Virus record (IMG/VR): IMGVR_UViG_2706795344_000001 | Span: 32,001 to 96,000 of that record | DNA from: a virus | Lineage: Duplodnaviria; Caudoviricetes | DNA length: 64,000 nucleotides | Strand: one strand, 5' to 3' | In this document: positions 12,312 to 63,354 of the stretch, piece after piece | How positions within the stretch are numbered: the stretch's first letter is position 1 | Layout: each line of letters starts with the position of its first letter | Program-made: the position numbers and the translations under genes | The notes under the pieces: generated by a model | What the model was told of the DNA's origin: nothing | What the model saw: the letters and a program-made list of their open reading frames with translations, nothing else | Database searches by the model: none

Positions 12312-13386
12312 GTCACCAAAACCAGATTTTACAAATGTATGGGCTACACAAGGTAACTTGGTTGCTCCATCACTTAACCAATTGCTTAGTGGCTGGCAAC
12401 AAAACCAGTTCCCACCATCTGGTGTAACTAACTATCAGATGAATAAAGTTGAATCTGCCATCTCTTATATCTTCCAAATGGGTATTGCAGAATGGACTCC
12501 TGAAGTTGAATATCAGGTCAACAGCTTAGCTCTCCACCCAACTAATGGTTTGGTATATCGATCTAAGACAATCAACAAATCTAAGGACCCAATGACGTCT
12601 GGCACAGATTGGGCTGTGGCATTCGACCAATTTGGAGCTTCTAACGATCTTAGAACCGAACTGACAAAGATTATGACACAAGATGGGTACATCCCATACT
12701 ACGTTAAGAAGTCTGACCCTGTAATGACTGGTGTTGCCAAAGCTCCAGCATTTAGAGCTGGTGTTGGTGCTCCAGCTGGTAATACTGGATTCCAATTTGA
12801 AAACTACAATACCACTGGTATGTACAGTCAAGGAGGTGATCTACTATTTTCTGCAAATGGAATTATTAATGGTCGAATCAAGTCTATCGCTCCTACCTTG
12901 GAGATGAATGATAACACCTTAGTAACAACTGCTTTACTTAAGAAGGTTATAGATGAAATCAAGGTTGCTACACAGCTTCCTATTGGTATGTCTATTATCT
13001 CCTCTAACAAAGCAAACCCTTCAACTTATTTAGGATATGGTACATGGATTCAAGACTTGCAAGGTAAGGCCCTTGTAGGTGTCGTGGCAAACGCTGGTAC
13101 TGATATGCCTGATTGGGTTAAGTATGTAGATAGTACATCTGGTGACAGTTACACAACTAAACTTGATATTAAAAACTTGCCATCATTCAGAGCCAACATC
13201 TTACTTAACACATGGGTTGGTGGTGACGATGCTAGTGGTGAGGGTGCTATCCTTACAGCTAACCGAGAATGGAGAACAGGTACACAAATGCCTGATAAAT
13301 CTTACGCTGACTTTAAGGGTGAAAACCTTCCATTCAGCAACGTACAGCCTTCTCAAACTAAATATATTTGGACTAGGACTGCTTAA
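12304..13386 (+). CDS. Short tail fibre / gp10-like baseplate protein
   Basis: N-terminal WA..G...GW...PP...N.....I.Y..Q.GIAEW fibre anchor; C-terminal PIG......NP..YLG.GTW and NVQPS...Y.W.RTA. Confidence 0.75.
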   Translation: MAKSPKPDFTNVWATQGNLVAPSLNQLLSGWQQNQFPPSGVTNYQMNKVESAISYIFQMGIAEWTPEVEYQVNSLALHPTNGLVYRSKTINKSKDPMTSGTDWAVAFDQFGASNDLRTELTKIMTQDGYIPYYVKKSDPVMTGVAKAPAFRAGVGAPAGNTGFQFENYNTTGMYSQGGDLLFSANGIINGRIKSIAPTLEMNDNTLVTTALLKKVIDEIKVATQLPIGMSIISSNKANPSTYLGYGTWIQDLQGKALVGVVANAGTDMPDWVKYVDSTSGDSYTTKLDIKNLPSFRANILLNTWVGGDDASGEGAILTANREWRTGTQMPDKSYADFKGENLPFSNVQPSQTKYIWTRTA

Positions 13387-13388
13387 TT

Positions 13389-13790
13389 ATGGAATTTATT
13401 ACGAGCTTCATAGCTTTTGCCAAAGGCGTTTTCCCAGCTGCTGTTGGCTCGGTAATCGCTGTTTGGAGAAAGAGAAATGAAGTGAACTTTAGAGAGATGG
13501 ATGCTTACCAAAAAGCATCTATTATTCTTGTGGCACTCTTTGCCGTTTTGGTGGGTGTATGTATTGGTAAGTGGATTGGAGGCGCAGTAGCAGTGTATTA
13601 CACCACTTCACCTTTCGTAACAACCTTAATTGAATTCGCAACAGCCCTCAATGGCCTTAAACTTGTAGACAGTTTGATAAAGAGTGTAGAAGCAGCCTTG
13701 GATGTTGTTACAAAAAACGTTCCTGTTTTAATAGGGAATATTGTTGAACTCATTTCCGATAAAATCGAAAAGATTTTCGGTAAGAAGTAA
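13389..13790 (+). CDS. Putative holin
   Basis: Two to three hydrophobic helices; located in the lysis cassette upstream of the endolysin. Confidence 0.55.
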   Translation: MEFITSFIAFAKGVFPAAVGSVIAVWRKRNEVNFREMDAYQKASIILVALFAVLVGVCIGKWIGGAVAVYYTTSPFVTTLIEFATALNGLKLVDSLIKSVEAALDVVTKNVPVLIGNIVELISDKIEKIFGKK

Positions 13791-13801
13791 AAGGTGATTA
13801 T

Positions 13802-14134
13802 ATGGTTATTACCCTTATAAAGATTATTTTTATCGTATTCTACTTTATCAATGTGGCTTGTGAGGTTTCAAACAGGTACAGGGATTGTAAGATGCACGTA
13901 GCTGTACGATATACATTCATGGTAGCTTCCGCTATTGCCTACACTAAAATCGGGGTACTTGCTACAGCCCCTTTAGTAGTTCAGATTTCGGCACTTATTA
14001 TTGTCATTTTTCTTGCTAAGTTTTTATACGATCATGTATTGAAACGTCAAATTAGAATCAAGAATTTCAGACTTAAAAAACTCTACCTTTCAGAGTCTGC
14101 ACGAAAACCTTCCCATAAACTAAACAGGAGATAA
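13802..14134 (+). CDS. Membrane protein, putative holin/antiholin
   Basis: About three TM segments and a strongly basic C-terminal tail. Confidence 0.5.
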   Translation: MVITLIKIIFIVFYFINVACEVSNRYRDCKMHVAVRYTFMVASAIAYTKIGVLATAPLVVQISALIIVIFLAKFLYDHVLKRQIRIKNFRLKKLYLSESARKPSHKLNRR

Positions 14135-30799: not shown

Positions 30800-33706
30800 T
30801 TGTCAGGAAAATATACATCAATCTTAATGCAAGAATCGAACTCATATGTGGATAGATTCCCTCAGTTCGTGGATGCAATTACATTTCAAAAGGAGGATTT
30901 GTTCTGGACAGAGAAAGAGATCAAAGTTGAAAAAGATGAACAGGACTTAAAACATAATATCCTACATTCGCAAGTTCACGCTTTGATGTTCAACCAACGA
31001 CTCTTTACTAAATATGAAGATGTCATTGGTAATGATTACTGGATTGGTGTTGTACATAAGAAGTATAAGTGTCATGAAATTCGAAGACTGGCTATTTGTT
31101 TTGCTGATGTCGAGAATAACATTCACTTCCCATTCTATCGTCGTGTGAACGAAGTTTTAGGGACCCATAACGATGAATTCTATGATGCATTTGAGACAGA
31201 CCCTATTTTAGTGGAACGTGTTAAATTCATGCAGGAATTGGTGGCATCGAAAGATACACTGGCATCTATGGGTGGATTTGCTTTCATGGAAGGTGCAGTA
31301 TTATTTACAGCATTTGCTATGATCAAGTCTCTCGGTGTTAAAGGTCAGTCATTTATGCCTAATTTGATTTCAGGTATTAACATGTCTATCCTTGACGAGA
31401 ACTTTCACATGCAGACGGCTTGTGAGATTTTCCGTACACAGTTAGAACTTGAGAATCGTACAGAGGAGGATGTTCGTAAGCTTAAAGAGGCCATCTATAA
31501 GCATGCTGAGAATGTCTTGGAACATGAATACATTATCATTAATGCTATGTTAGCTGAAGGTGATATTCCTTTTGCTTCTAAGAAGGAGTTGCAAGCATTT
31601 GCTCGTCACCGTGTTAACGTTGTATTAACAACTTTAGGTTTCCCTGAGTTAGCCACATTTGATGAGACAGATGATACTATCTCTGAGTGGTTCTATGAAT
31701 TCATGGGTGGGTATACAAGTAACGATAACTTCTATTCTCGTGGTCGTAACTACAAGAAAGAGTTCTCTGCTGTTGACTATGACATTATCTCAAATGGTGC
31801 TGTAGAGGAAGTACTTGCACAAATCCCTGATGAGTATTTAGACCAAATGGGTATTGACTTGAATCGTAAGTTCGAAAAGACTTTAGAGGAAGAGTTAGAG
31901 GCCAAACGTCCTAAACGTAAGAAGCACAACAATGCGGAAGATGCTTTATATGTTCCAGATTACAGTCGTGAACGTAAAGAGATGCAAGCACGTGGTGAAG
32001 CTCCTGAGTGGATGGCAACGGCTGGATGGCAGTTATTCAAGAAGAAATATCTTAACGGTGACTGTAAGACTCCAAAAGACCAGTACATGCGTATTGCTAA
32101 GTGTTTAGGGCAGTATGCACCTGAAGTTTACCCTTCTTGGTGGAATACTATTCCATATTGGGCTGGTTTGACATGGGAAGAGGCATTCTTCAAAATCATG
32201 TGGGATGGTTTCTTAAGTCCTTCAACTCCTGTACTTTCAAACACAGGTACAGATTTTGGTATGTCGGTATCATGCTCTGGTGCTGTAACTGAAGATAGTG
32301 TTGCTGGGTTCTATGACGCTCGTAAGATCAATGCATTACTTTCGAAAGAAGGTTTTGGTACTACAATTGATTTAGATCGTATCCGTGGACGTGGCATGCC
32401 AATGAAGGGTGGTATTGCCAATGGTGCTCTTCCTGTAGCTCGTATGTTCCGTCAGGATGCTTTAGATATCAGCCAAGGCTCACAACGTCGTGGTGCTACA
32501 GCTTGGTATTACAGTGTGGAAGGTTTGGACTTTGATGAATTATTACACTTCTTAGAGTATGATACGGATGGCAATAATGGTGGTTGGAAAATTACTAATG
32601 AGCTTCTTAACCGTGTCTTAATTGGTGATACATTAGCTATTGAACGTTTGAATAAAATCTTAGCTGTTCGACACCATGTAGGTTTGGGTTACGAATTATT
32701 TATCGATAAGGTGAATGCTCGTCGTCCTCAGATGTACAAAGATCGTGGTATGATGGTTTCTACAAGTAACCTATGTACTGAGATTACATTGTTTAGTGAC
32801 CCTGAACATACATTTACATGTGTATTGTCAAGTGAGAACTTAGTTCGATTTGATGAGCGTCCAGAGAACTTGGCCTTTGTTGGTACAGTGTTCCTTGACT
32901 GTGTGGCTGAAGACTTTATTCAGAAAGGTTCTAAGATCAAAGGTCTTGAAACTGCTGTTGAGTTTACTAAGAAAGGCCGTGCTCTTGGTTATGGTACAAT
33001 GGGCTTTGCTTCATACTTAATGCGTAACGACATCGAGTATGGTTCAATGGAATCATTCTGGAAGAATAAGAAGATTTATTCTACCCTTGAAGCAGAAACA
33101 AAAGCAGCTTCTAAATGGTTGGCTAAAGTTCTTGGTGAACCAGAGTGGTGTGAAGGTTATGGTGTTCGTAATACACACTTAATGGCTATCGCTCCTACTA
33201 AGTCTACAGGCTTATTAATGGGTGGTGACTCTGAGGGTATTAATGTTCCGTCAGCATTTGTATTTGCACAAGATACTCCAGCTGGAACTGTATTCCGTAT
33301 TGACCCATCATTCTTGATGTTGTTGAAACGTAAAGGTCTATATAAAATTGACCCTGAAACAAAACGATTAACACCTGAAACTGAGGCGTTATTAAAACGT
33401 GTGTCAGACAACCTTGGTAGTGTGCAAACATTAACAGATGTCTTGACAGACAAAGAACGTGCTGTATTTAAAACAGCTTATGAGATTAACCAGTACCGTC
33501 ATATTGATTTGTGTGCTCAACGTCAAGAACATATTGACCAAGCTCAATCAATCAACTTATTCATTGCGAATATGTCGGCTCAGGAAATCGCTAAGTTGTA
33601 TATGTATGCTGCACTTAACCCTAATATCTTGAGTTTGTATTACCATACTGGTATTCGTGACTCTCGTATTGGGGAGAATAAAAACGAATGTGAATCTTGT
33701 CAATAA
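30800..33706 (+). CDS. nrdB-nrdA: Class I ribonucleotide reductase, beta (NrdB) and alpha (NrdA) subunits fused in one ORF
   Basis: N-terminal half: FWTEKE, YE, ENNIHFPFY, EGAVLF, DENFH. C-terminal half: SPSTP, VSC, SNLCTEI, TCVLSS, APT, QAQSINL, LYY and terminal CESC. TTG start at 30800 after AGGAG. Confidence 0.9.
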   Translation: MSGKYTSILMQESNSYVDRFPQFVDAITFQKEDLFWTEKEIKVEKDEQDLKHNILHSQVHALMFNQRLFTKYEDVIGNDYWIGVVHKKYKCHEIRRLAICFADVENNIHFPFYRRVNEVLGTHNDEFYDAFETDPILVERVKFMQELVASKDTLASMGGFAFMEGAVLFTAFAMIKSLGVKGQSFMPNLISGINMSILDENFHMQTACEIFRTQLELENRTEEDVRKLKEAIYKHAENVLEHEYIIINAMLAEGDIPFASKKELQAFARHRVNVVLTTLGFPELATFDETDDTISEWFYEFMGGYTSNDNFYSRGRNYKKEFSAVDYDIISNGAVEEVLAQIPDEYLDQMGIDLNRKFEKTLEEELEAKRPKRKKHNNAEDALYVPDYSRERKEMQARGEAPEWMATAGWQLFKKKYLNGDCKTPKDQYMRIAKCLGQYAPEVYPSWWNTIPYWAGLTWEEAFFKIMWDGFLSPSTPVLSNTGTDFGMSVSCSGAVTEDSVAGFYDARKINALLSKEGFGTTIDLDRIRGRGMPMKGGIANGALPVARMFRQDALDISQGSQRRGATAWYYSVEGLDFDELLHFLEYDTDGNNGGWKITNELLNRVLIGDTLAIERLNKILAVRHHVGLGYELFIDKVNARRPQMYKDRGMMVSTSNLCTEITLFSDPEHTFTCVLSSENLVRFDERPENLAFVGTVFLDCVAEDFIQKGSKIKGLETAVEFTKKGRALGYGTMGFASYLMRNDIEYGSMESFWKNKKIYSTLEAETKAASKWLAKVLGEPEWCEGYGVRNTHLMAIAPTKSTGLLMGGDSEGINVPSAFVFAQDTPAGTVFRIDPSFLMLLKRKGLYKIDPETKRLTPETEALLKRVSDNLGSVQTLTDVLTDKERAVFKTAYEINQYRHIDLCAQRQEHIDQAQSINLFIANMSAQEIAKLYMYAALNPNILSLYYHTGIRDSRIGENKNECESCQ

Positions 33707-53029: not shown

Positions 53030-53968
53030 ATGGGTGTAGCCATTCATAAATATATCAGCTTACGTACACCTAAAGAGCAGATTGAGTTGGATATATCTTC
53101 ATTTGCTGATGGGACTAAACGTGTGATCATTCCAGATATTGATCAGTTTGATATGCAGAAAGAATTTCGAATAGATGTGTACCATCGTAGTTTGGACGAC
53201 ATCATGATTGTTGCACAGATTGTAGATATTATACGTCGTAATACACGTATAATTCCAGACATTACATTGACACTAAACTCTCCAGCATATATGCGATATG
53301 ATCGTGTAATGTTGAAGACTCGTCGAGATGCTTTTGTTCTCAACCAGTTTGCTGATATGCTTAAGTGTACAGGTGTAAACAAAATCCTTGTCTTAGACCC
53401 ACATAGCGAAGTCTTTCGTGAGTTGATGAATCTTAAGGGTGTAATGACTATTGAGTTGCGTCAATCTGGTTGTCTTGATGATGTGGTTCGTGAGTATATG
53501 GACCTTGGTATGTATCCTATCACAAGTAATATGCAAACCAAATATGATATCTTAGTTCCAGATGCTGGAGCAGCTAAGAAATGGTCTGCCTCACGAGGTC
53601 GTAAGATTTACAACTCTACAAAGAGTCGTAATCCAAAGACAGGTCATCTATCTGACTTTGCTATTGATGATGCTGACTTTGAAAAATTGATGCAGAGTAA
53701 GCAAGAGCGTTTGTTGATTGTAGATGATATCTGTGAAAATGGTGGGACCTTCATAGGATGCGTTGAGATGCTACGTAAGCGAGGCTTTACTAAACCTGTG
53801 GATTTATATGTAACACATGGAATCTTTCCTAAACACGAGCCTATGTTGCTTATGGGAGAGACATTTGAGAACATTTATATCCATAGTTGTAAGTTGGACA
53901 CATACAATGCCTTAAATACTTTCTGCAACTCTAAAATATTTGCATTAAATACTTATACTGGTTATTGA
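53030..53968 (+). CDS. adps: PRPP-synthetase homologue, likely Adps (ADPR-PP synthetase) of NARP1
   Basis: F.DG, Y.RYDR, LDPHS, VPDAGA.K, K.R, LIVDDICENGGTF and YVTHGIF; paired with a NAMPT homologue. Confidence 0.75.
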   Translation: MGVAIHKYISLRTPKEQIELDISSFADGTKRVIIPDIDQFDMQKEFRIDVYHRSLDDIMIVAQIVDIIRRNTRIIPDITLTLNSPAYMRYDRVMLKTRRDAFVLNQFADMLKCTGVNKILVLDPHSEVFRELMNLKGVMTIELRQSGCLDDVVREYMDLGMYPITSNMQTKYDILVPDAGAAKKWSASRGRKIYNSTKSRNPKTGHLSDFAIDDADFEKLMQSKQERLLIVDDICENGGTFIGCVEMLRKRGFTKPVDLYVTHGIFPKHEPMLLMGETFENIYIHSCKLDTYNALNTFCNSKIFALNTYTGY

Positions 53969-53998
53969 CAGGTACGTGGGGGCATAGTAATATGCTCT
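53965..53998 (+). promoter_or_regulatory. Sigma70-type promoter with -10 in a hairpin
   Basis: TTGACA-17-TAATAT; GGGCATA-gtaa-TATGCTC. Confidence 0.55.
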
Positions 53999-54020
53999 CA
54001 CAATTTTTATGAGGTGCTTT

Positions 54021-54242
54021 ATGAAAGCAAAGATTATAGCAAGTCAGGAAAGCCTTATTGGTATGTGTCTTGGCGGTGTTACGGTACAAGGGAAACCACT
54101 GGAAGCTGGGCTAATTATTGAAGTAGAGCTTGCTGATCACGATGTTAGTGGTAATGTATACTCATTCATTGGTGAGCTGGGTGATGATGAAGGTGTCCTA
54201 TGGTTCATCTATGGTGATTTATTAGAGATTATTGAGGAGTAA
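54021..54242 (+). CDS. Small hypothetical protein
   Basis: RBS GAGGTG before ATG 54021. Confidence 0.55.
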   Translation: MKAKIIASQESLIGMCLGGVTVQGKPLEAGLIIEVELADHDVSGNVYSFIGELGDDEGVLWFIYGDLLEIIEE

Positions 54243-54247
54243 TTTAA

Positions 54248-56064
54248 TGACATTTTTGGAAAAGAAAGCTTTACTAGAAGAACAAATGTTTGATGCTGTA
54301 CCAAAAGTAAATCCATTCTTATATTGGACAGACTCATATAAAGATTCTCACATTCGTTTCGAAGTTGAAGGTGTTAAGTACATCTATTCAAATGCTACGG
54401 CTCGTTTTGGAACTTACATGCGTGAATTGCTAGGTGATTATTACACTGATGAATTTGTTGTATTTGGTATTCAGTGGATGCTTGCACGTTTCCACGCTAT
54501 GGCTAAGATTGGGTTCTTTGATCGACCTAAACAAGAAGTCTTGGATGAGATGTTAGATGTTCTTGGACCTTATATCGGTGAAACTGATGTTAGTCGTTTT
54601 GGTGATCTGCATGATCTTGGCTATGTACCATTAATCTTTAAGGCATTACCTGAAGGTACAGTTGCACCTATTGGTACTCCATTCTATACATGTGAGAATA
54701 CATTGCCAGAGTTCGAGTGGCTATCTAATTTCTTAGAATCTGGTATGTCTACCGATACTTGGAAACAGTTGACAGTTGCTACAGTAGCATATGCTTTCCG
54801 TAAGATCAGTAACCAGTTTGCTTTGGAGACTCAGGGTACTCTTGAAGGGACAGAGTGGCAGAATCATGACTTCTCAACACGTGGTCAGTCTGGTTTTGAG
54901 TCTGGTGCAATTAATGGTGTAGCATTCTTGCTTAGCTCTTGTGGTACTGACAATAAGCCATCGTTGTGGGCTGCTAAAACATTCTATATGAGTGAGAACT
55001 CAAGTGATGTAGTGTTATGTGGTTCTGTTCCTGCTGGTGAGCATAGTGTTTCGACGTTAGGTATTCAGTCTTATATTAAAAAGGCTCAGATGGATGGTGA
55101 AGAGTTATCTTTACTTGATGCGGAAATTAAGTACGCTAAGTTTATCGCTACTGAACGTTTCCCTAAAGGTATTGTCTCTTATGTCGCAGATTCATATGAT
55201 TATTGGTCATTCATTACTAAAGTTCTTCCAGCTATTAAAGAAGATATTTTGGCTCGTGATGGTAAATTTGTTGTTCGGGGTGACTCTGGCAATCCTATTA
55301 ATATTATTGCTGGCTATCGTATTTTCGATGCTGATACAGATACTCGTGTTAAAGGTAAATTTAATACCATTACTCAGTTGATGTTGAACACACATTTATG
55401 GTGGGACTCTAAATGGGAAGTGGTTAAATTTAAAGACCAGTATTACCGTATTACCGAAGAGGGTATCGGCATTGAGGAAATCTCAGGTGAAGAGGCTCAC
55501 GGAACTATTCAATGTCTGTGGAATGAGTTTGGTGGCACTGTAAATGATCTTGGATTTAAACATTTAGATTCTCATATTGGTATGATTTATGGTGATGGGA
55601 TTACCATCCAACGCTCTGTGGAAATCTTATCTCGATTAAAAGAGAAAGGTTTTGCATCTACTAACATTGTGTTTGGTGTAGGTAGCTACTCGTTGAACAT
55701 GTTGTCTCGTGACCATCTTGGTATTGCTATTAAGGCAACCAATGCAATCATTGACATTAATGGTGAAGACGTAGAGATGCCAATCTACAAGGACCCTAAG
55801 ACAGATACAAGCAAGAAATCTGCTAAAGGTTATTTGGTGGTATCTGCTGATAAAGAGGGTAACATCATTACTTTGGATGAACAGAGTCGTGAAGCAGCTT
55901 TACGTACAGGACTATTAGAAACTGTGTATATGAATGGGCAATTCCAAGTATTAACTACAGTACCAGAGATTCGTGAACGTTTGTGGAATCCTAAGTCCTT
56001 AGCTCCTCCTGTAGTTGAAGAGCCAGAAGCTGAGCAAACTCAACCAGAGGAGTCTGTAGAGTAA
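54248..56064 (+). CDS. namat: Nicotinamide phosphoribosyltransferase homologue, likely Namat of NARP1 (start approximate)
   Basis: TDSYK.SH, HDFSTRG, GTD, SVPAGEHSV, SYVADSYD, RGDSG, IYGDGIT, FGVGS, KAT, KDPKTD and KKSAKG. Confidence 0.8.
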
Positions 56065-56534
56065 TGATTGAGGAACGCATCAAAGGTGATGTGTTCCCTT
56101 ATCTTATGAGGAAAAACAATAATTTCGATGCATTCGTGCATGGTTGTAATTGTTTCTGCACTATGGGTAAGGGGATAGCTCCATTGGTAAAGAAAAACTT
56201 TCCTGTAGCTTATGAAGCTGATTTGTTGACAGAGAAAGGTGATCGAAGTAAGCTTGGTGACTATACGTGGGCTTGGGTGAATGAGTATAAACTTGAAATT
56301 ATCAATGCTTACACTCAGTATGACTATAGAAGAGCGTATGGCGATTCAGATGTGAATGTCAGTTACCATGCGATTCGAGAAGTGTTCAGGAAACTTAACA
56401 AAGATTATCGAGGCAGTCGAGTTGCGATACCTAAGATCGGTGCTGGGTTAGCTGGTGGAGATTGGGAGTTGATAGAAAAGATTATCAATGAAGAGACACC
56501 AGACCTACACATTACATTGTTTTATTTAGATTAA
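56064..56534 (+). CDS. Macrodomain protein (ADP-ribose binding/hydrolase)
   Basis: GD, HGCNCFCTMGKGIA, INAYTQ and PKIGAGLAGGDW. Confidence 0.9.
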   Translation: MIEERIKGDVFPYLMRKNNNFDAFVHGCNCFCTMGKGIAPLVKKNFPVAYEADLLTEKGDRSKLGDYTWAWVNEYKLEIINAYTQYDYRRAYGDSDVNVSYHAIREVFRKLNKDYRGSRVAIPKIGAGLAGGDWELIEKIINEETPDLHITLFYLD

Positions 56535-58628: not shown

Positions 58629-58657
58629 TTGACATTAAAATTGTATGTCAGTATTAT
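58629..58657 (+). promoter_or_regulatory. Sigma70-type promoter
   Basis: TTGACA-17-TATTAT. Confidence 0.65.
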
Positions 58658-58685: not shown

Positions 58686-59384
58686 ATGAGTTGGTTCAAA
58701 AAATTATTTACAATTGGTGTAAACACAGTTAACGAAAAAGGTGAGCAAGCTGTTGTAAATTTTGTTGACATCTCTCGTGAAGGTAAAGCAATTGTTGCTA
58801 AGCGTAAAAAAGATATTGAAGATTCAAAAAAGTCTATCTTGGAGTCTAACACGACTGTAAAGAAGCATGAGAATCGTATCAAACGGAATGAAGAATCATT
58901 ACGTGATTGGAACTTGATTGCAGAGCAAGCTGTTAAAGCTGGCAATGACGGTGATGCACTAAAAGCGGTAACTCAAATTGAGATTATCGAAAGTGAAAAT
59001 GAGACTCTTAAGTCTGTGGTCGAAGATTTAAAACCTTTAATTGCTAAGCGTAAGGCTCAGTTAGATCAGATGGAAATCGATGTGTTCAAGATTGAGCATG
59101 AGATTGAACGTTTAAGCATCCTTCATGAATCTCTTAAAGATCGTGAGAAAGCAACAGGTAAAGCGGAGGGCAGTTTGACTAATGCATTTAACGTAGAAGA
59201 CCTACGAAACATTGTTGACAATGCCAAAGCTCGTGTTGAAGCTAAAGAGGAGTTAGGTTCCAACGATTTACAGGACTTGACTAAGAAGTATAGCTCTACA
59301 CAAATCTCTGCTGAGGAGCGATTAGCTAAGCTGAAAGAGAAGATTAATGGCCCACAAGAAGGTGAGAAAAAGCGTAGTAAATAA
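58686..59384 (+). CDS. PspA/IM30 (ESCRT-III-like) family protein
   Basis: Amphipathic MSWFKKLF; long coiled coil; W...AEQAVKAGNDGDALKA; C-terminal AEERLAKLK. Confidence 0.75.
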   Translation: MSWFKKLFTIGVNTVNEKGEQAVVNFVDISREGKAIVAKRKKDIEDSKKSILESNTTVKKHENRIKRNEESLRDWNLIAEQAVKAGNDGDALKAVTQIEIIESENETLKSVVEDLKPLIAKRKAQLDQMEIDVFKIEHEIERLSILHESLKDREKATGKAEGSLTNAFNVEDLRNIVDNAKARVEAKEELGSNDLQDLTKKYSSTQISAEERLAKLKEKINGPQEGEKKRSK

Positions 59385-59389
59385 TTTAT

Positions 59390-59419
59390 AAGGCAGCATC
59401 GAAAGGTGTTGCCTTTTTT
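59390..59419 (+). terminator. Intrinsic terminator
   Basis: AGGCAGCATC-gaaa-GGTGTTGCCT-TTTTT. Confidence 0.8.
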
Positions 59420-61299: not shown

Positions 61300-61539
61300 A
61301 TGAAATTATATTTAGTGGTAAATGAACAATCTGGTGAATGTGTTGGTTTTAATGACTTAGCTGATGCACAACATGCAGCTACAGGGAAGAACTTTAGTAG
61401 TGATCAGCGACAAGGTTGGTACAGTACTTTGGGTTCAGAGTTCCGTGAAAGTGTTCTTGAAAGTGGTGATGAGCAGTTACGTATCGCTGAGGTGGAAATT
61501 GATTTGGCTACATTAAAAAATGCAGAGGACTTTAAATGA
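61300..61539 (+). CDS. Hypothetical protein
   Basis: RBS AGGAG. Confidence 0.6.
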   Translation: MKLYLVVNEQSGECVGFNDLADAQHAATGKNFSSDQRQGWYSTLGSEFRESVLESGDEQLRIAEVEIDLATLKNAEDFK

Positions 61540-61886
61540 AAAAGTTAGTTAAAGAATTCCATGAACATAGCTTAAAGCAGCGTAATACCAAGCGTACAAG
61601 TAAGATGCTCTGCGATGCTGCATTCTACATCATGAATAGCAAAAGCAGTAGAGAAGCTATTATTGTGGGAGCTACTGAGCATCATTTAGCTGAGATGAAG
61701 GCTACAGCAAATCGACTTTTCAATTCTCACATAGCATGTTCTATGGTATTCGTGACAAGAAGTGCCTTAGATGACAAAGTTAAAGGTAGAAATGAGAAAA
61801 CTTACAAGGTGTTCTATGACCACTTTGCTTTAGAGTCAGAGATTGCTAAACTGTTAGTAGAGTACACCAAGTACGAGGAGAACTAA
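61536..61886 (+). CDS. Miniature degenerate terminase/P-loop ATPase-like protein (paralogue 1)
   Basis: QRNTKRT (RxxGKT-like), IIVGAT...A and KG...KVFYDH (Walker B-like). Confidence 0.45.
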   Translation: MKKLVKEFHEHSLKQRNTKRTSKMLCDAAFYIMNSKSSREAIIVGATEHHLAEMKATANRLFNSHIACSMVFVTRSALDDKVKGRNEKTYKVFYDHFALESEIAKLLVEYTKYEEN

Positions 61887-62267
61887 GTGGAAAGAATACC
61901 TAAAGATATGAAAGAGGCATCGGAACATTTTAGGGCTATTAGTTCTTTTAAACATAGAATTAATCGAAGTGTTCGAATGCTTTGTCAGGCATTGTTCCAT
62001 GTGTCAAATGGCTATTCTGGAAATCATTCTATAGTTGTTGCTTTGGATGAAGATCATAAGAAACAGCTAGAAGATAAAGCTAAGGAGATGTTCTCTACTG
62101 AGGTACTTAAACATATTGGATTCATTAGTTACGAAAAGTATAAGAAGTTTAATAGGGAAGGTGAGGTGGTAGGTTTAAAATATTTTATCGACCCTGCTTG
62201 CCTTGAAGATGATATCGCTGTACTATTAAAGAAGTGGGAACAGTACGATGACCCAAGAGATTATTAA
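61887..62267 (+). CDS. Miniature degenerate terminase/P-loop ATPase-like protein (paralogue 2)
   Basis: Aligns with 61536-61886: R...RS.RMLC, IVVA, A..MF, F.D...LE..IA.LL.....Y. Confidence 0.45.
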   Translation: MERIPKDMKEASEHFRAISSFKHRINRSVRMLCQALFHVSNGYSGNHSIVVALDEDHKKQLEDKAKEMFSTEVLKHIGFISYEKYKKFNREGEVVGLKYFIDPACLEDDIAVLLKKWEQYDDPRDY

Positions 62268-62278
62268 CGGAGACTGAT

Positions 62279-62785
62279 ATGTCACACTTTGGTATAGACC
62301 CAAGAGCAGCTAAAGAATTTTGGAATGAGAAAACCAAAGAGCCATTCGATTTTGACTGGAAAGAAATCAATGCAGATATGGCTGCTGCTGTAGTACACAA
62401 CCTAAGAGTATGTGAGGCGTTCCTATTTGGACGTTTCCCTAGCGCTGAGGAAGCTAAGGAACATATCGATGTGTGGGCAGAGTGGCAAGAGATACGTCGT
62501 AATAACCCTGTAAGCTTCTTCAAGCCACGAAAGATGCCAAACGTTGGAACTATAGGGTATCCAGAAGAACCTTGCTTAAACGAGCTTACACGCTTAATTA
62601 GAGGTAGTATTGCTAAGGACGAACTGTGTATGGTGGTTGGTAAACCTACAAATGCATCTACTGTACGTCCTGAAGTGTTGGAGTTTTATAAGAGTCGTCG
62701 TAGTAGTAATCCTATATTGCATGTAGCTCTTGAAGACACTAAGCCTTATCTAATTGATAGGTACTTAGGAACCTCAATAAAATAA
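62279..62785 (+). CDS. Protein carrying an EF-Tu-like NVGTIG motif and a dead DnaB-helicase H1/H1a fragment
   Basis: Ungapped register with this phage's own helicase segment LRDLDD...STGKSV...FSLED. Confidence 0.5.
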   Translation: MSHFGIDPRAAKEFWNEKTKEPFDFDWKEINADMAAAVVHNLRVCEAFLFGRFPSAEEAKEHIDVWAEWQEIRRNNPVSFFKPRKMPNVGTIGYPEEPCLNELTRLIRGSIAKDELCMVVGKPTNASTVRPEVLEFYKSRRSSNPILHVALEDTKPYLIDRYLGTSIK

Positions 62786-62801: not shown

Positions 62802-63002
62802 ATGAGTCATGACTTACACACAAGAACAGCTATGTGGATGTTTGATGTTGGGGCTAGTGAAGTGACGGAAACTCAGAGACGTGGAGCTAAAGCATATAAC
62901 TATGCTAAACAGTATGGAGCTAGTAATACAACAGCTACTGTTGAAGCCATCAAAGCTATGCGAGAGGGTAAGTGTGAAGTGTACAGGAATGAGGGAGCTT
63001 AG
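62802..63002 (+). CDS. Stand-alone DNA polymerase A fingers/O-helix (motif B) mini-protein
   Basis: DLH..TA...F.V...EVT..QRR.AKA.NY...YG.S; RBS GGAG. Confidence 0.7.
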   Translation: MSHDLHTRTAMWMFDVGASEVTETQRRGAKAYNYAKQYGASNTTATVEAIKAMREGKCEVYRNEGA

Positions 63003-63014
63003 GCTCTCTTTTTT
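62992..63014 (+). terminator. Intrinsic terminator closing the decoy-like cluster
   Basis: AGGGAGC-ttag-GCTCTCT-TTTTT. Confidence 0.75.
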
Positions 63015-63101: not shown

Positions 63102-63130
63102 TTGACACCTATGTATGTTATAAATATAAT
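63102..63130 (+). promoter_or_regulatory. Consensus sigma70 promoter
   Basis: TTGACA-17-TATAAT with upstream A/T tracts. Confidence 0.8.
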
Positions 63131-63136
63131 GAAATC

Positions 63137-63354
63137 TCTTTAATGTAGTAAGTTAATAAGTTGATTTAAGATTGGTGGCATTGCAGTGCCAAGTATATAG
63201 GAGTGTTGGGTATGTGAACTTATGTGGTAGATAGGTGTGACACTATGGAAGATTGGTAGACGAAGTGCTATACATTTCCAGCATCTTGATGGAGGTTCAT
63301 GAAAGTGTCTAATGAGCTGTGAGAAATTGCCCATGCTTTGTCGTGGGCTTTTTT
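63137..63354 (+). ncRNA. Candidate ~220 nt small transcript containing only minigenes
   Basis: Bounded by a consensus promoter and the terminator GCCCATG-ctttgt-CGTGGGC-TTTTTT; ATG-initiated ORFs are at most 7 codons. Confidence 0.45.

Follow-up and report, generated by a model that had tools for sequence, protein, structure and literature searches.

What do two small, adjacent genes of an Acinetobacter phage encode, and are their products directed against host defence? The question was raised by a window of 64,000 nucleotides, the whole stretch of DNA analysed, which covers positions 32,001 to 96,000 of the IMG/VR record IMGVR_UViG_2706795344_000001 and is part of a phage record of 104.9 kb. 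An earlier note, made from the sequence of the window, had described the two open reading frames (ORFs), here called ORF A and ORF B, as tandem paralogues resembling a minimised terminase ATPase with inactivated Walker motifs, and had proposed that they act as decoys for the Avs1-3 defence sensors. The pair was found to consist of real, conserved genes of the family phrog_5437, and the anti-Avs decoy role is unsupported. On balance the two proteins are probably a non-catalytic and probably dimeric remnant of a motor-ATPase half-domain, used as a binding module in DNA metabolism. Family membership, paralogy, purifying selection, fold class and motif register form the established part of this description.

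Both ORFs were confirmed at the positions given in the table below and contain all of the strings that the earlier note had quoted from them. Comparison of ORF A with ORF B using BLASTP gave 29% identity over 124 columns with an expectation value (E) of 8e-13. The hidden Markov model (HMM) of phrog_5437 matched both proteins end to end, over positions 1-115 of 115, with E values of 2.8e-36 for ORF A and 2.5e-37 for ORF B. As judged from these alignments the two are true paralogues, well beyond chance, as had been proposed, and the order of motifs and structural elements that had been read from the sequence agrees with the AlphaFold2 models of both proteins. The ratio of nonsynonymous to synonymous substitution rates (dN/dS), measured against the orthologues of phage Aci05, was 0.11 for ORF A and 0.29 for ORF B, and both are therefore real, maintained genes under purifying selection. 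They are preceded by a gene for a 79-residue protein, which in the relatives always lies immediately 5' of the family gene or genes. The three genes look translationally linked, because the first overlaps the start of ORF A, the stop codon of ORF A abuts the start of ORF B, and a ribosome-binding site for ORF B lies within the end of ORF A.

The family phrog_5437 is small and almost confined to phages, and is made up of single-domain proteins of about 110 residues. When 1.84 billion representative proteins were searched with a profile, only 13 clusters were returned, all of 106-182 residues, and no long relatives. A pattern scan of IMG/VR located 19 further family loci, while a related-locus search of IMG/VR with ORF A gave no relatives; all 15 members of the family alignment matched phrog_5437. 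Sequence and profile searches of Pfam, NCBIfam, PADLOC and the PDB sequences gave no known family above threshold, and no mention of phrog_5437 was found in the literature. One member, P0022, has an N-terminal zinc-ribbon (CPNCG...CPC), and some of the structural neighbours from BFVD and ESM are clusters of about 166 residues named 'Zinc-ribbon containing domain protein'. This suggests that part of the family has an extra module, the zinc-ribbon, for binding nucleic acid or protein.

The distant members of the family share an N-terminal [KR]-x-T-G-R-T-T-[RK]-M-[LI] motif and a strand ending in F-x-D-H, which take the places of Walker A and Walker B. Compared with the Walker A pattern GxxxxGK[ST], ORF A has NTKRTS and ORF B has RINRSV, so that Arg stands where the Lys would be and no Gly of the pattern remains. 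At Walker B, where a hydrophobic strand would end in Asp followed by Glu, the strand and the Asp are kept and the next residue is His in ORF A and Pro in ORF B. This Asp (D95 of ORF A) is the sole invariant column across 34 family sequences. The copies in the window are the most degenerate of the family, as the Gly ahead of the Arg has become Lys in ORF A and Asn in ORF B, and ORF B has Pro after the Asp; the orthologues of ORF B carry GTGRST or GTNRST at the Walker A position. The replacement of the Walker Lys and Glu, which had been described as inactivation, was therefore observed, but decay of the site was not, since the Arg and the D-H pair are conserved family-wide. Conservation of Arg for Lys and of His for Glu across the family indicates that the altered site is a selected variant. 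A further candidate, a C-x5-R-[ST] site like that of low-molecular-weight protein tyrosine phosphatases, was rejected on finding no Cys six residues ahead of the Arg.

Canonical Walker motifs occur in P0018, a borderline member of 121 residues that carries GDRGSGKTT and FIDE in the same columns as TGRTT...DH. P0018 matched the family profile with an E value of 5.8e-5 (whole library) and phrog_5437 with an E value of 6.8e-6, and it gave sub-threshold matches to AAA_14, Zot, TK and AAA_22 that run from Walker A to Walker B. ORF A and P0018 also share their neighbours in ESM feature space. Three members with GRTT gave sub-threshold matches to the P-loop of KdpD, and P0020 gave a weak match (E 0.051) to the NCBIfam model 'KGGVGR-motif variant AAA ATPase'.

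The AlphaFold2 models of ORF A and ORF B had predicted local distance difference test (pLDDT) scores of 83.8 and 81.4 respectively. The model of ORF A contains a helix (residues 2-17), the K19-R20-T21 loop, a helix (19-33), a strand (40-45), two helices (48-61 and 64-68), a strand (70-74), a helix (75-82), a strand (90-94) that ends at D95-H96, and a final helix (96-115). ORF B has the same topology, with the loop between helices 6-22 and 27-40 and a third strand that ends at D102-P103. Common to both models are an N-terminal helix, a short R-[ST] loop, a long helix and three strand-helix units, the third strand terminating at the invariant Asp. The segment ahead of the loop is helical rather than a strand in both, and both proteins end about 20 residues past the Asp. 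The same limits apply across the family, where P0018 alone has room for a strand ahead of the loop, several members begin merely 3 to 8 residues ahead of G-R-T, and all end one helix past the Asp.

Comparison of the models with the PDB using Foldseek gave no match at E <= 0.001 for either protein, and a structure search of BFVD returned uncharacterised phage proteins only. The structural neighbours were mostly domain 1 of superfamily 1 and 2 (SF1/SF2) helicases, which made up nearly all of the best 50 neighbours of the ORF B model. An independent ESM Atlas model of ORF A aligned over residues 14-110 with UvrD, AddB_N and SNF2 N-terminal domains, with template modelling (TM) scores of 0.56-0.66 (0.59 for AddB_N). 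In one example among the helicase neighbours, model residues 22-112 aligned to residues 203-300 of NS3 from hepatitis C virus (HCV). Within the aligned ranges the R-[ST] loop coincides with Walker A of the helicase and the invariant Asp lies close to Walker B, according to the motif numbering of NS3. The models give moderate support to the assignment of ORF A and ORF B as one half, from Walker A through Walker B, of a RecA-like P-loop domain of the additional-strand catalytic-Glu (ASCE) class, a type that occurs in SF1/SF2 helicases and packaging ATPases. As modelled, they would be missing the strand ahead of the P-loop and everything past the Walker B strand. Autonomous ATPase activity is unlikely because there is no pre-loop strand and nothing beyond Walker B.

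It could be argued that the likeness to P-loop proteins is convergent, and that the family is an unrelated group of small Rossmann-like alpha/beta proteins with 'Walker' motifs by chance. This would be consistent with the absence of a significant Foldseek match in the PDB, with a profile search of PDB sequences that gave only weak, unrelated matches (among them STEAP3 and ribosomal proteins), and with HMMER searches that placed no P-loop family above threshold. Such convergence is nevertheless decidedly improbable, given that helicase domain 1 fills nearly all of the top 50 for ORF B, that the ESM model of ORF A leads to UvrD, AddB and SNF2, that the R-[ST] loop and the invariant Asp fall on or near the two Walker positions, and that the family is linked to genuine Walker motifs, column for column, by P0018. 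Descent of the family from an ASCE P-loop domain is likely, and is the best reading because the motifs, P0018, the KdpD matches, the ESM neighbourhood and the fold all combine in its favour.

If the family descends from such a domain, the altered site might still work, as a mini P-loop variant that binds nucleotides or other phosphorylated small molecules and perhaps also hydrolyses or transfers them, making the proteins enzymes or sponges for signalling nucleotides in which the Arg, Thr, Asp and His are functional. TGRTT and D-H are the best conserved parts of the family, the Thr/Ser that would be the Mg ligand and the Walker B Asp are kept, P0018 is an equally small relative with intact Walker motifs, and the match of P0020 hints at natural P-loops with Arg for Lys; NAD-salvage genes also lie nearby in this phage. 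The P-loop would however be unanchored for want of a pre-loop strand, in a family where several members start so close to G-R-T, and sensor or arginine-finger elements are absent past Walker B. The Gly before the Arg is lost in both copies of the window and ORF B has Pro instead of His, which makes these copies the least likely nucleotide binders of the family. A working site is thus an unlikely explanation, and the reading of ORF A and ORF B as non-catalytic remnants is preferred to it.

The proposed origin of the pair from a terminase was examined against the large terminase (TerL) of the same phage, a Terminase_6N protein with the Walker A sequence GGAAGSGKT whose gene lies outside the window at genome positions 12355-13902. 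The parallel to T4-type terminase motifs on which the proposal was built stands outside the confirmed observations. No terminase family was matched in Pfam (E up to 5), PHROGs (E up to 1) or HMMER searches. BLASTP of the pair gave nothing with the phage's own TerL, nor did the family HMM when run against all ORFs of the phage. At 116 and 126 residues, ORF A and ORF B have neither a C-terminal nuclease domain nor a coupling motif after Walker B. A TerL profile was built from this terminase and 113 homologues (114 sequences), and alignment of the family with it using hhalign gave a score of 21.9 and a P value of 0.01 over 50 columns, TerL being the only P-loop profile compared. The alignment was in the register of the Walker A helix, strand 2 and the following helix, and its score was equalled by 1 of 200 column shuffles; removal of P0018 gave a P value of 0.05. 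The extended alignment did not place D-H on the Walker B of TerL. Alignments by hhalign of the family with the single sequences of the phage SF1 helicase and DnaB-type primase-helicase gave no alignment in the Walker register. ESM features led to Podovirus_Gp16 and Terminase_6N clusters at 0.79-0.81, and to ResIII, all below the reliability line. A ranking with an HMM of the TerL N-terminus, in which the family ORFs stood high among 725 small ORFs (Mann-Whitney p 2e-6), was not counted because the scores were about 0 bits, the family rows were non-independent and the null contained many non-coding frames.

A terminase-specific link of the family is therefore marginal, and the parent may have been either a helicase-type or a packaging-type ASCE domain. 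The Foldseek comparison proposed in the earlier note gave helicase-type P-loop neighbours, and no terminase chain was among the matches listed for either model, an absence from the top 50 that leaves the terminase family possible. Of the original description, the minimised P-loop core with altered Walker sites is retained with moderate support from the helicase neighbours, the columns of P0018 and the sub-threshold KdpD matches, while the terminase identity is not. The pair is best described as a remnant of a motor-ATPase half-domain.

The TerL alignment also showed that several homologues (P0034, P0042, P0061, P0064, P0065 and P0101) are 800-850 residues long compared with about 500 residues for the others. 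Some homologues have a large insertion immediately past the GSGK of Walker A, and P0034, P0042 and P0065 contain the homing-endonuclease or intein-type Pfam domains PF14528 and PF05204. From their sequences, it looks as though relatives carry inteins in the terminase P-loop.

The phage of the window is a Saclayvirus-like Acinetobacter myophage, its close relatives being Acinetobacter baumannii myophages of the genus Saclayvirus with 81-89% nucleotide identity (among them Liucustia, Ab_121 and vB_AbaM_B09_Aci05). Every one of the 16 records of related Acinetobacter phages contained copy B. Copy A, at >= 90% identity, was present in four, which represent three distinct phages, one of them deposited twice; the phage of the window is additional to these. 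In phage vB_AbaM_D22 (L025:1801-2531) the A-B order is not found, and copy B is followed by a third paralogue, C, which is identical to P0015, belongs to the DP type and shares 37% identity with B. In the rest of the relatives B is the only copy. B, found in all 16 records, is thus the core gene. The additional copy (A in four records, C in D22) is an accessory that varies between close relatives, both in where it lies and in which paralogue it is.

A 48.6-kb metagenomic phage contig from IMG/VR has a gene (L017:5962-6630) in which two phrog_5437 domains are naturally fused into one protein of 222 residues. The first domain has TGRTT...VDH, and the second is of the DP type with FDP and is without the Walker-A-like N-terminal part (independent E value 2.7e-5). 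This natural fusion suggests that two family domains act together, as a homodimer or heterodimer. When ORF A and ORF B were joined as a read-through sequence (P0144, with the TAA taken as Gly), MAFFT put all homologues on the B half.

The decoy proposal, on which these results bear only indirectly, is that the pair mimics the terminase ATPase core with dead residues and sequesters Avs1-3 without activating them, with the duplication widening the range of receptors. SeAvs3 recognises the active-site residues of terminase together with their bound ATP, and EcAvs2 buries approximately 2800 square angstroms on the terminase ATPase domain and touches the active-site ATP and Mg2+ via a bridging ATP (PMC13601566, PMC11564622). 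Small phage proteins are known to activate Avs2. T4 vs.8 is a small homologue of the terminase ATPase with intact Walker motifs that is toxic with EcAvs2, and so acts as a trigger (PMC13601566). KpAvs2 is likewise activated by Ksap1 and Ksap2, two small phage proteins of restricted taxonomic range, of which Ksap2 bears a weak structural likeness to a terminase ATPase (PMC11564622). The family resembles vs.8, Ksap1 and Ksap2 in that all are small proteins of narrow phage groups with an undefined native role, and ORF A and ORF B share with vs.8 and Ksap2 an architecture like that of an ATPase core. In contrast to the family, vs.8 has intact Walker A and B motifs and clear homology to the T4 terminase, and the three proteins are triggers of Avs2, not inhibitors; no relationship between them and phrog_5437 came to light, no test aimed at one having been made.

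The hhalign result with the TerL profile, in the correct register, the weak ESM leads to Podovirus_Gp16 and Terminase_6N, and an extra paralogue that is A in some relatives, C in another and missing from the rest, as arms-race genes would lead one to expect, are what a decoy could be argued from. The sensors however read a terminase active site with its ATP, and binding of ATP in the manner of terminase is unlikely for the pair. The two proteins are poor candidates for occupants of Avs sensors because they are fragments without half of the ATPase core and probably without ATP binding. The empty terminase searches, the misplaced D-H and the helicases that fill the listed fold neighbours argue in the same direction, and vs.8 and Ksap2 activate Avs2. 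Duplication for a wider receptor range was not borne out, as most relatives have a single copy, B. PADLOC, the literature and anti-defence surveys yielded no link of the family to anti-defence. A decoy of this kind is extremely improbable. The broader proposal, in which members of phrog_5437 are stand-alone mimics of the conserved ASCE core found in the DNA motors of phages (terminase or helicase) and engage host sensors (Avs1-3 or Upx), either as blockers or as triggers like Ksap2 and vs.8, with the variable paralogue tracking sensor diversity, is also very unlikely; if true in its blocker version, these would be the first sensor-level anti-Avs proteins.

A different role is indicated by the position of the family gene elsewhere. 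Four lineages of 41-kb T7-like Acinetobacter podophages have a single copy inside the replication and recombination block. The gene order begins with DNA polymerase, in some cases an HNH gene, phrog_862, the family gene and a 5'-3' exonuclease, whose gene start is overlapped by the family gene, and continues with a nucleotidyltransferase, endonuclease VII, a phosphoesterase, a deoxynucleoside monophosphate (dNMP) kinase and RNA polymerase. A role in DNA metabolism is favoured because the podophage copy is embedded in this block. The same slot in T7 also houses host-takeover genes. The explanation that best fits is that a former nucleotide site has been retained in altered form, with Arg for the Walker A Lys, the invariant Asp, and His or Pro for the Glu. 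The proteins would then be non-catalytic binding modules and not autonomous ATPases, in which the remnant site and the surrounding surface may bind a ligand carrying phosphate or else a partner ATPase that works in DNA metabolism. They would act as dimers, presumably B-B in most phages and A-B in this one. The likeliest role would be to regulate or assist DNA metabolism, or to serve a host takeover directed at it, in preference to packaging or evasion of Avs.

Several observations weigh against this explanation. The tie to true P-loops depends for the most part on P0018, a single borderline sequence whose matches to phrog_1828 and thymidine kinase are about as good as its match to phrog_5437. 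Synteny among T7-like phages is generally high, so that the podophage position may reflect mere genome collinearity, and in the myophage of the window the pair lies outside the replication block, among small genes near the NAD-salvage and PspA-like genes. Pairing of A with B is not obligatory, as most relatives hold B only.

The features of the window that surround the pair are collected in the table. ORF A and ORF B sit within a series of small genes on the same strand, 5' of which lie an NAD-salvage cluster (53030-56534, + strand) and a gene for a PspA/IM30-like protein. Phage NAD-salvage genes are known to restore NAD+ against NAD-depleting defences. A promoter-like site close to the consensus (58629-58657) and a terminator-like hairpin (59390-59415) flank the PspA/IM30-family gene. 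The 168-residue ORF that directly follows ORF B matched no Pfam or PHROG family, and BLASTP of this ORF against the phage primase-helicase gave no meaningful similarity, the best E value being 0.2 and lying outside the Walker register. The polymerase match of the next, 66-residue ORF spans a motif-B-like segment, R..K..NYA.QYG, and BLASTP against the phage's own DNA polymerase gave an E value of 0.086 only. In Aci05 the counterpart of this ORF is followed by an HNH endonuclease gene, and because of this adjacency the ORF may be a leftover of homing-endonuclease traffic and not a purposeful mimic of the polymerase.

Table. Positions of the gene pair, its altered motifs and neighbouring features in the window.
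Feature	Coordinates	Strand	Basis or remark
Ribose-phosphate pyrophosphokinase	53030-53968	+	NAD-salvage cluster
Nicotinamide phosphoribosyltransferase	54232-56064	+	NAD-salvage cluster
Phosphatase-like protein	56064-56534	+	NAD-salvage cluster
PspA/IM30-family protein gene	58686-59384	+	phrog_26980, E 8e-111; PspA/IM30 annotation in relatives
Upstream gene, 79 residues, phrog_18211	61300-61539	+	Stop overlaps ORF A ATG (ATGA)
ORF A, 116 residues, phrog_5437 'DH' type, accessory copy	61536-61886	+	ORF call, PHROG match
ORF A N17-S22 (NTKRTS), Walker A equivalent; Arg for Lys, Lys for preceding Gly	61584-61601	+	Aligns with TGRTT (distant members) and SGKTT (P0018)
ORF A third strand and D95-H96 (KVFYDH), Walker B equivalent; Asp kept, His for catalytic Glu	61803-61823	+	Alignment, model
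A/B junction: GAGGAG ribosome-binding site within ORF A end, TAA of A, in-frame GTG of B	61875-61889	+	Sequence
ORF B, 126 residues, GTG start, phrog_5437 'DP' type, core copy	61887-62267	+	ORF call, PHROG match
ORF B I25-S28 (INRS), degenerate Walker-A-equivalent loop	61959-61970	+	Alignments, model
ORF B third strand and D102-P103 (KYFIDP), Walker B equivalent	62175-62195	+	Alignment, model
168-residue ORF directly 3' of ORF B	62279-62785	+	Kept in all relatives
66-residue ORF	62802-63002	+	DNA polymerase PHROG matches (phrog_2573 E 5.4e-5; phrog_6982, phrog_17)
Terminator-like hairpin, probably end of the ORF A/ORF B transcription unit	62991-63010	+	Consensus scan only
Perfect sigma-70 consensus (TTGACA, 17-nucleotide spacer, TATAAT)	63102-63130	+	Sequence
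Terminator-like hairpin, about 200 nucleotides past the sigma-70 consensus	63329-63348	+	No sizeable ORF in between

When ORF A and ORF B were compared with known systems, the closest in fold were the first RecA-like domains of SF1/SF2 helicases, including the helicase-like domain of POLQ (9osw), MDA5 (3b6e and 4i1s), HCV NS3 (4b6e), Rep (1uaa) and DEAD-box proteins. Unlike these, the pair has no strand leading into the P-loop, no strands after Walker B, no second RecA-like lobe and no motifs III-VI; it has Arg in place of Lys and His or Pro in place of Glu, and gives no match at the sequence level. The likeness to the large terminase ATPase (Terminase_6N and the phage's own TerL) is marginal and covers the Walker A helix, strand 2 and the next helix of what are both ASCE-type domains, while the HMM match, the Walker B register, the coupling motif and the nuclease domain are missing. 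Mini P-loop proteins of the P0018 and phrog_1828 type are of similar size (121 residues), align from the P-loop to Walker B and share the ESM neighbourhood, but P0018 differs in having a pre-loop strand (KYYYG) and canonical GSGKTT and D-E motifs, and may be a real NTPase. The N-terminal domain of AddB offers a likeness in kind, as a P-loop-derived fold with degenerate motifs that serves in binding instead of catalysis; it is however set within a large multidomain nuclease-helicase, whereas the family remnant is solitary and much shorter.

At present these results are an annotation-level insight into an uncharacterised family and not a demonstrated new mechanism. If the explanation is correct, phages would have put half of a motor-ATPase domain to new use, as a module without catalytic activity whose altered site, with Arg for Lys and His for Glu, is conserved, and the family would provide a concrete and cheap target for learning what pseudo-ATPase remnants bind. 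It would also bear on a question that arises from the work on Avs2, that of the native roles of small phage proteins resembling an ATPase core. The family is present in Acinetobacter baumannii phages that are used therapeutically, and telling a role in defence from one in DNA metabolism has some practical value for these phages.

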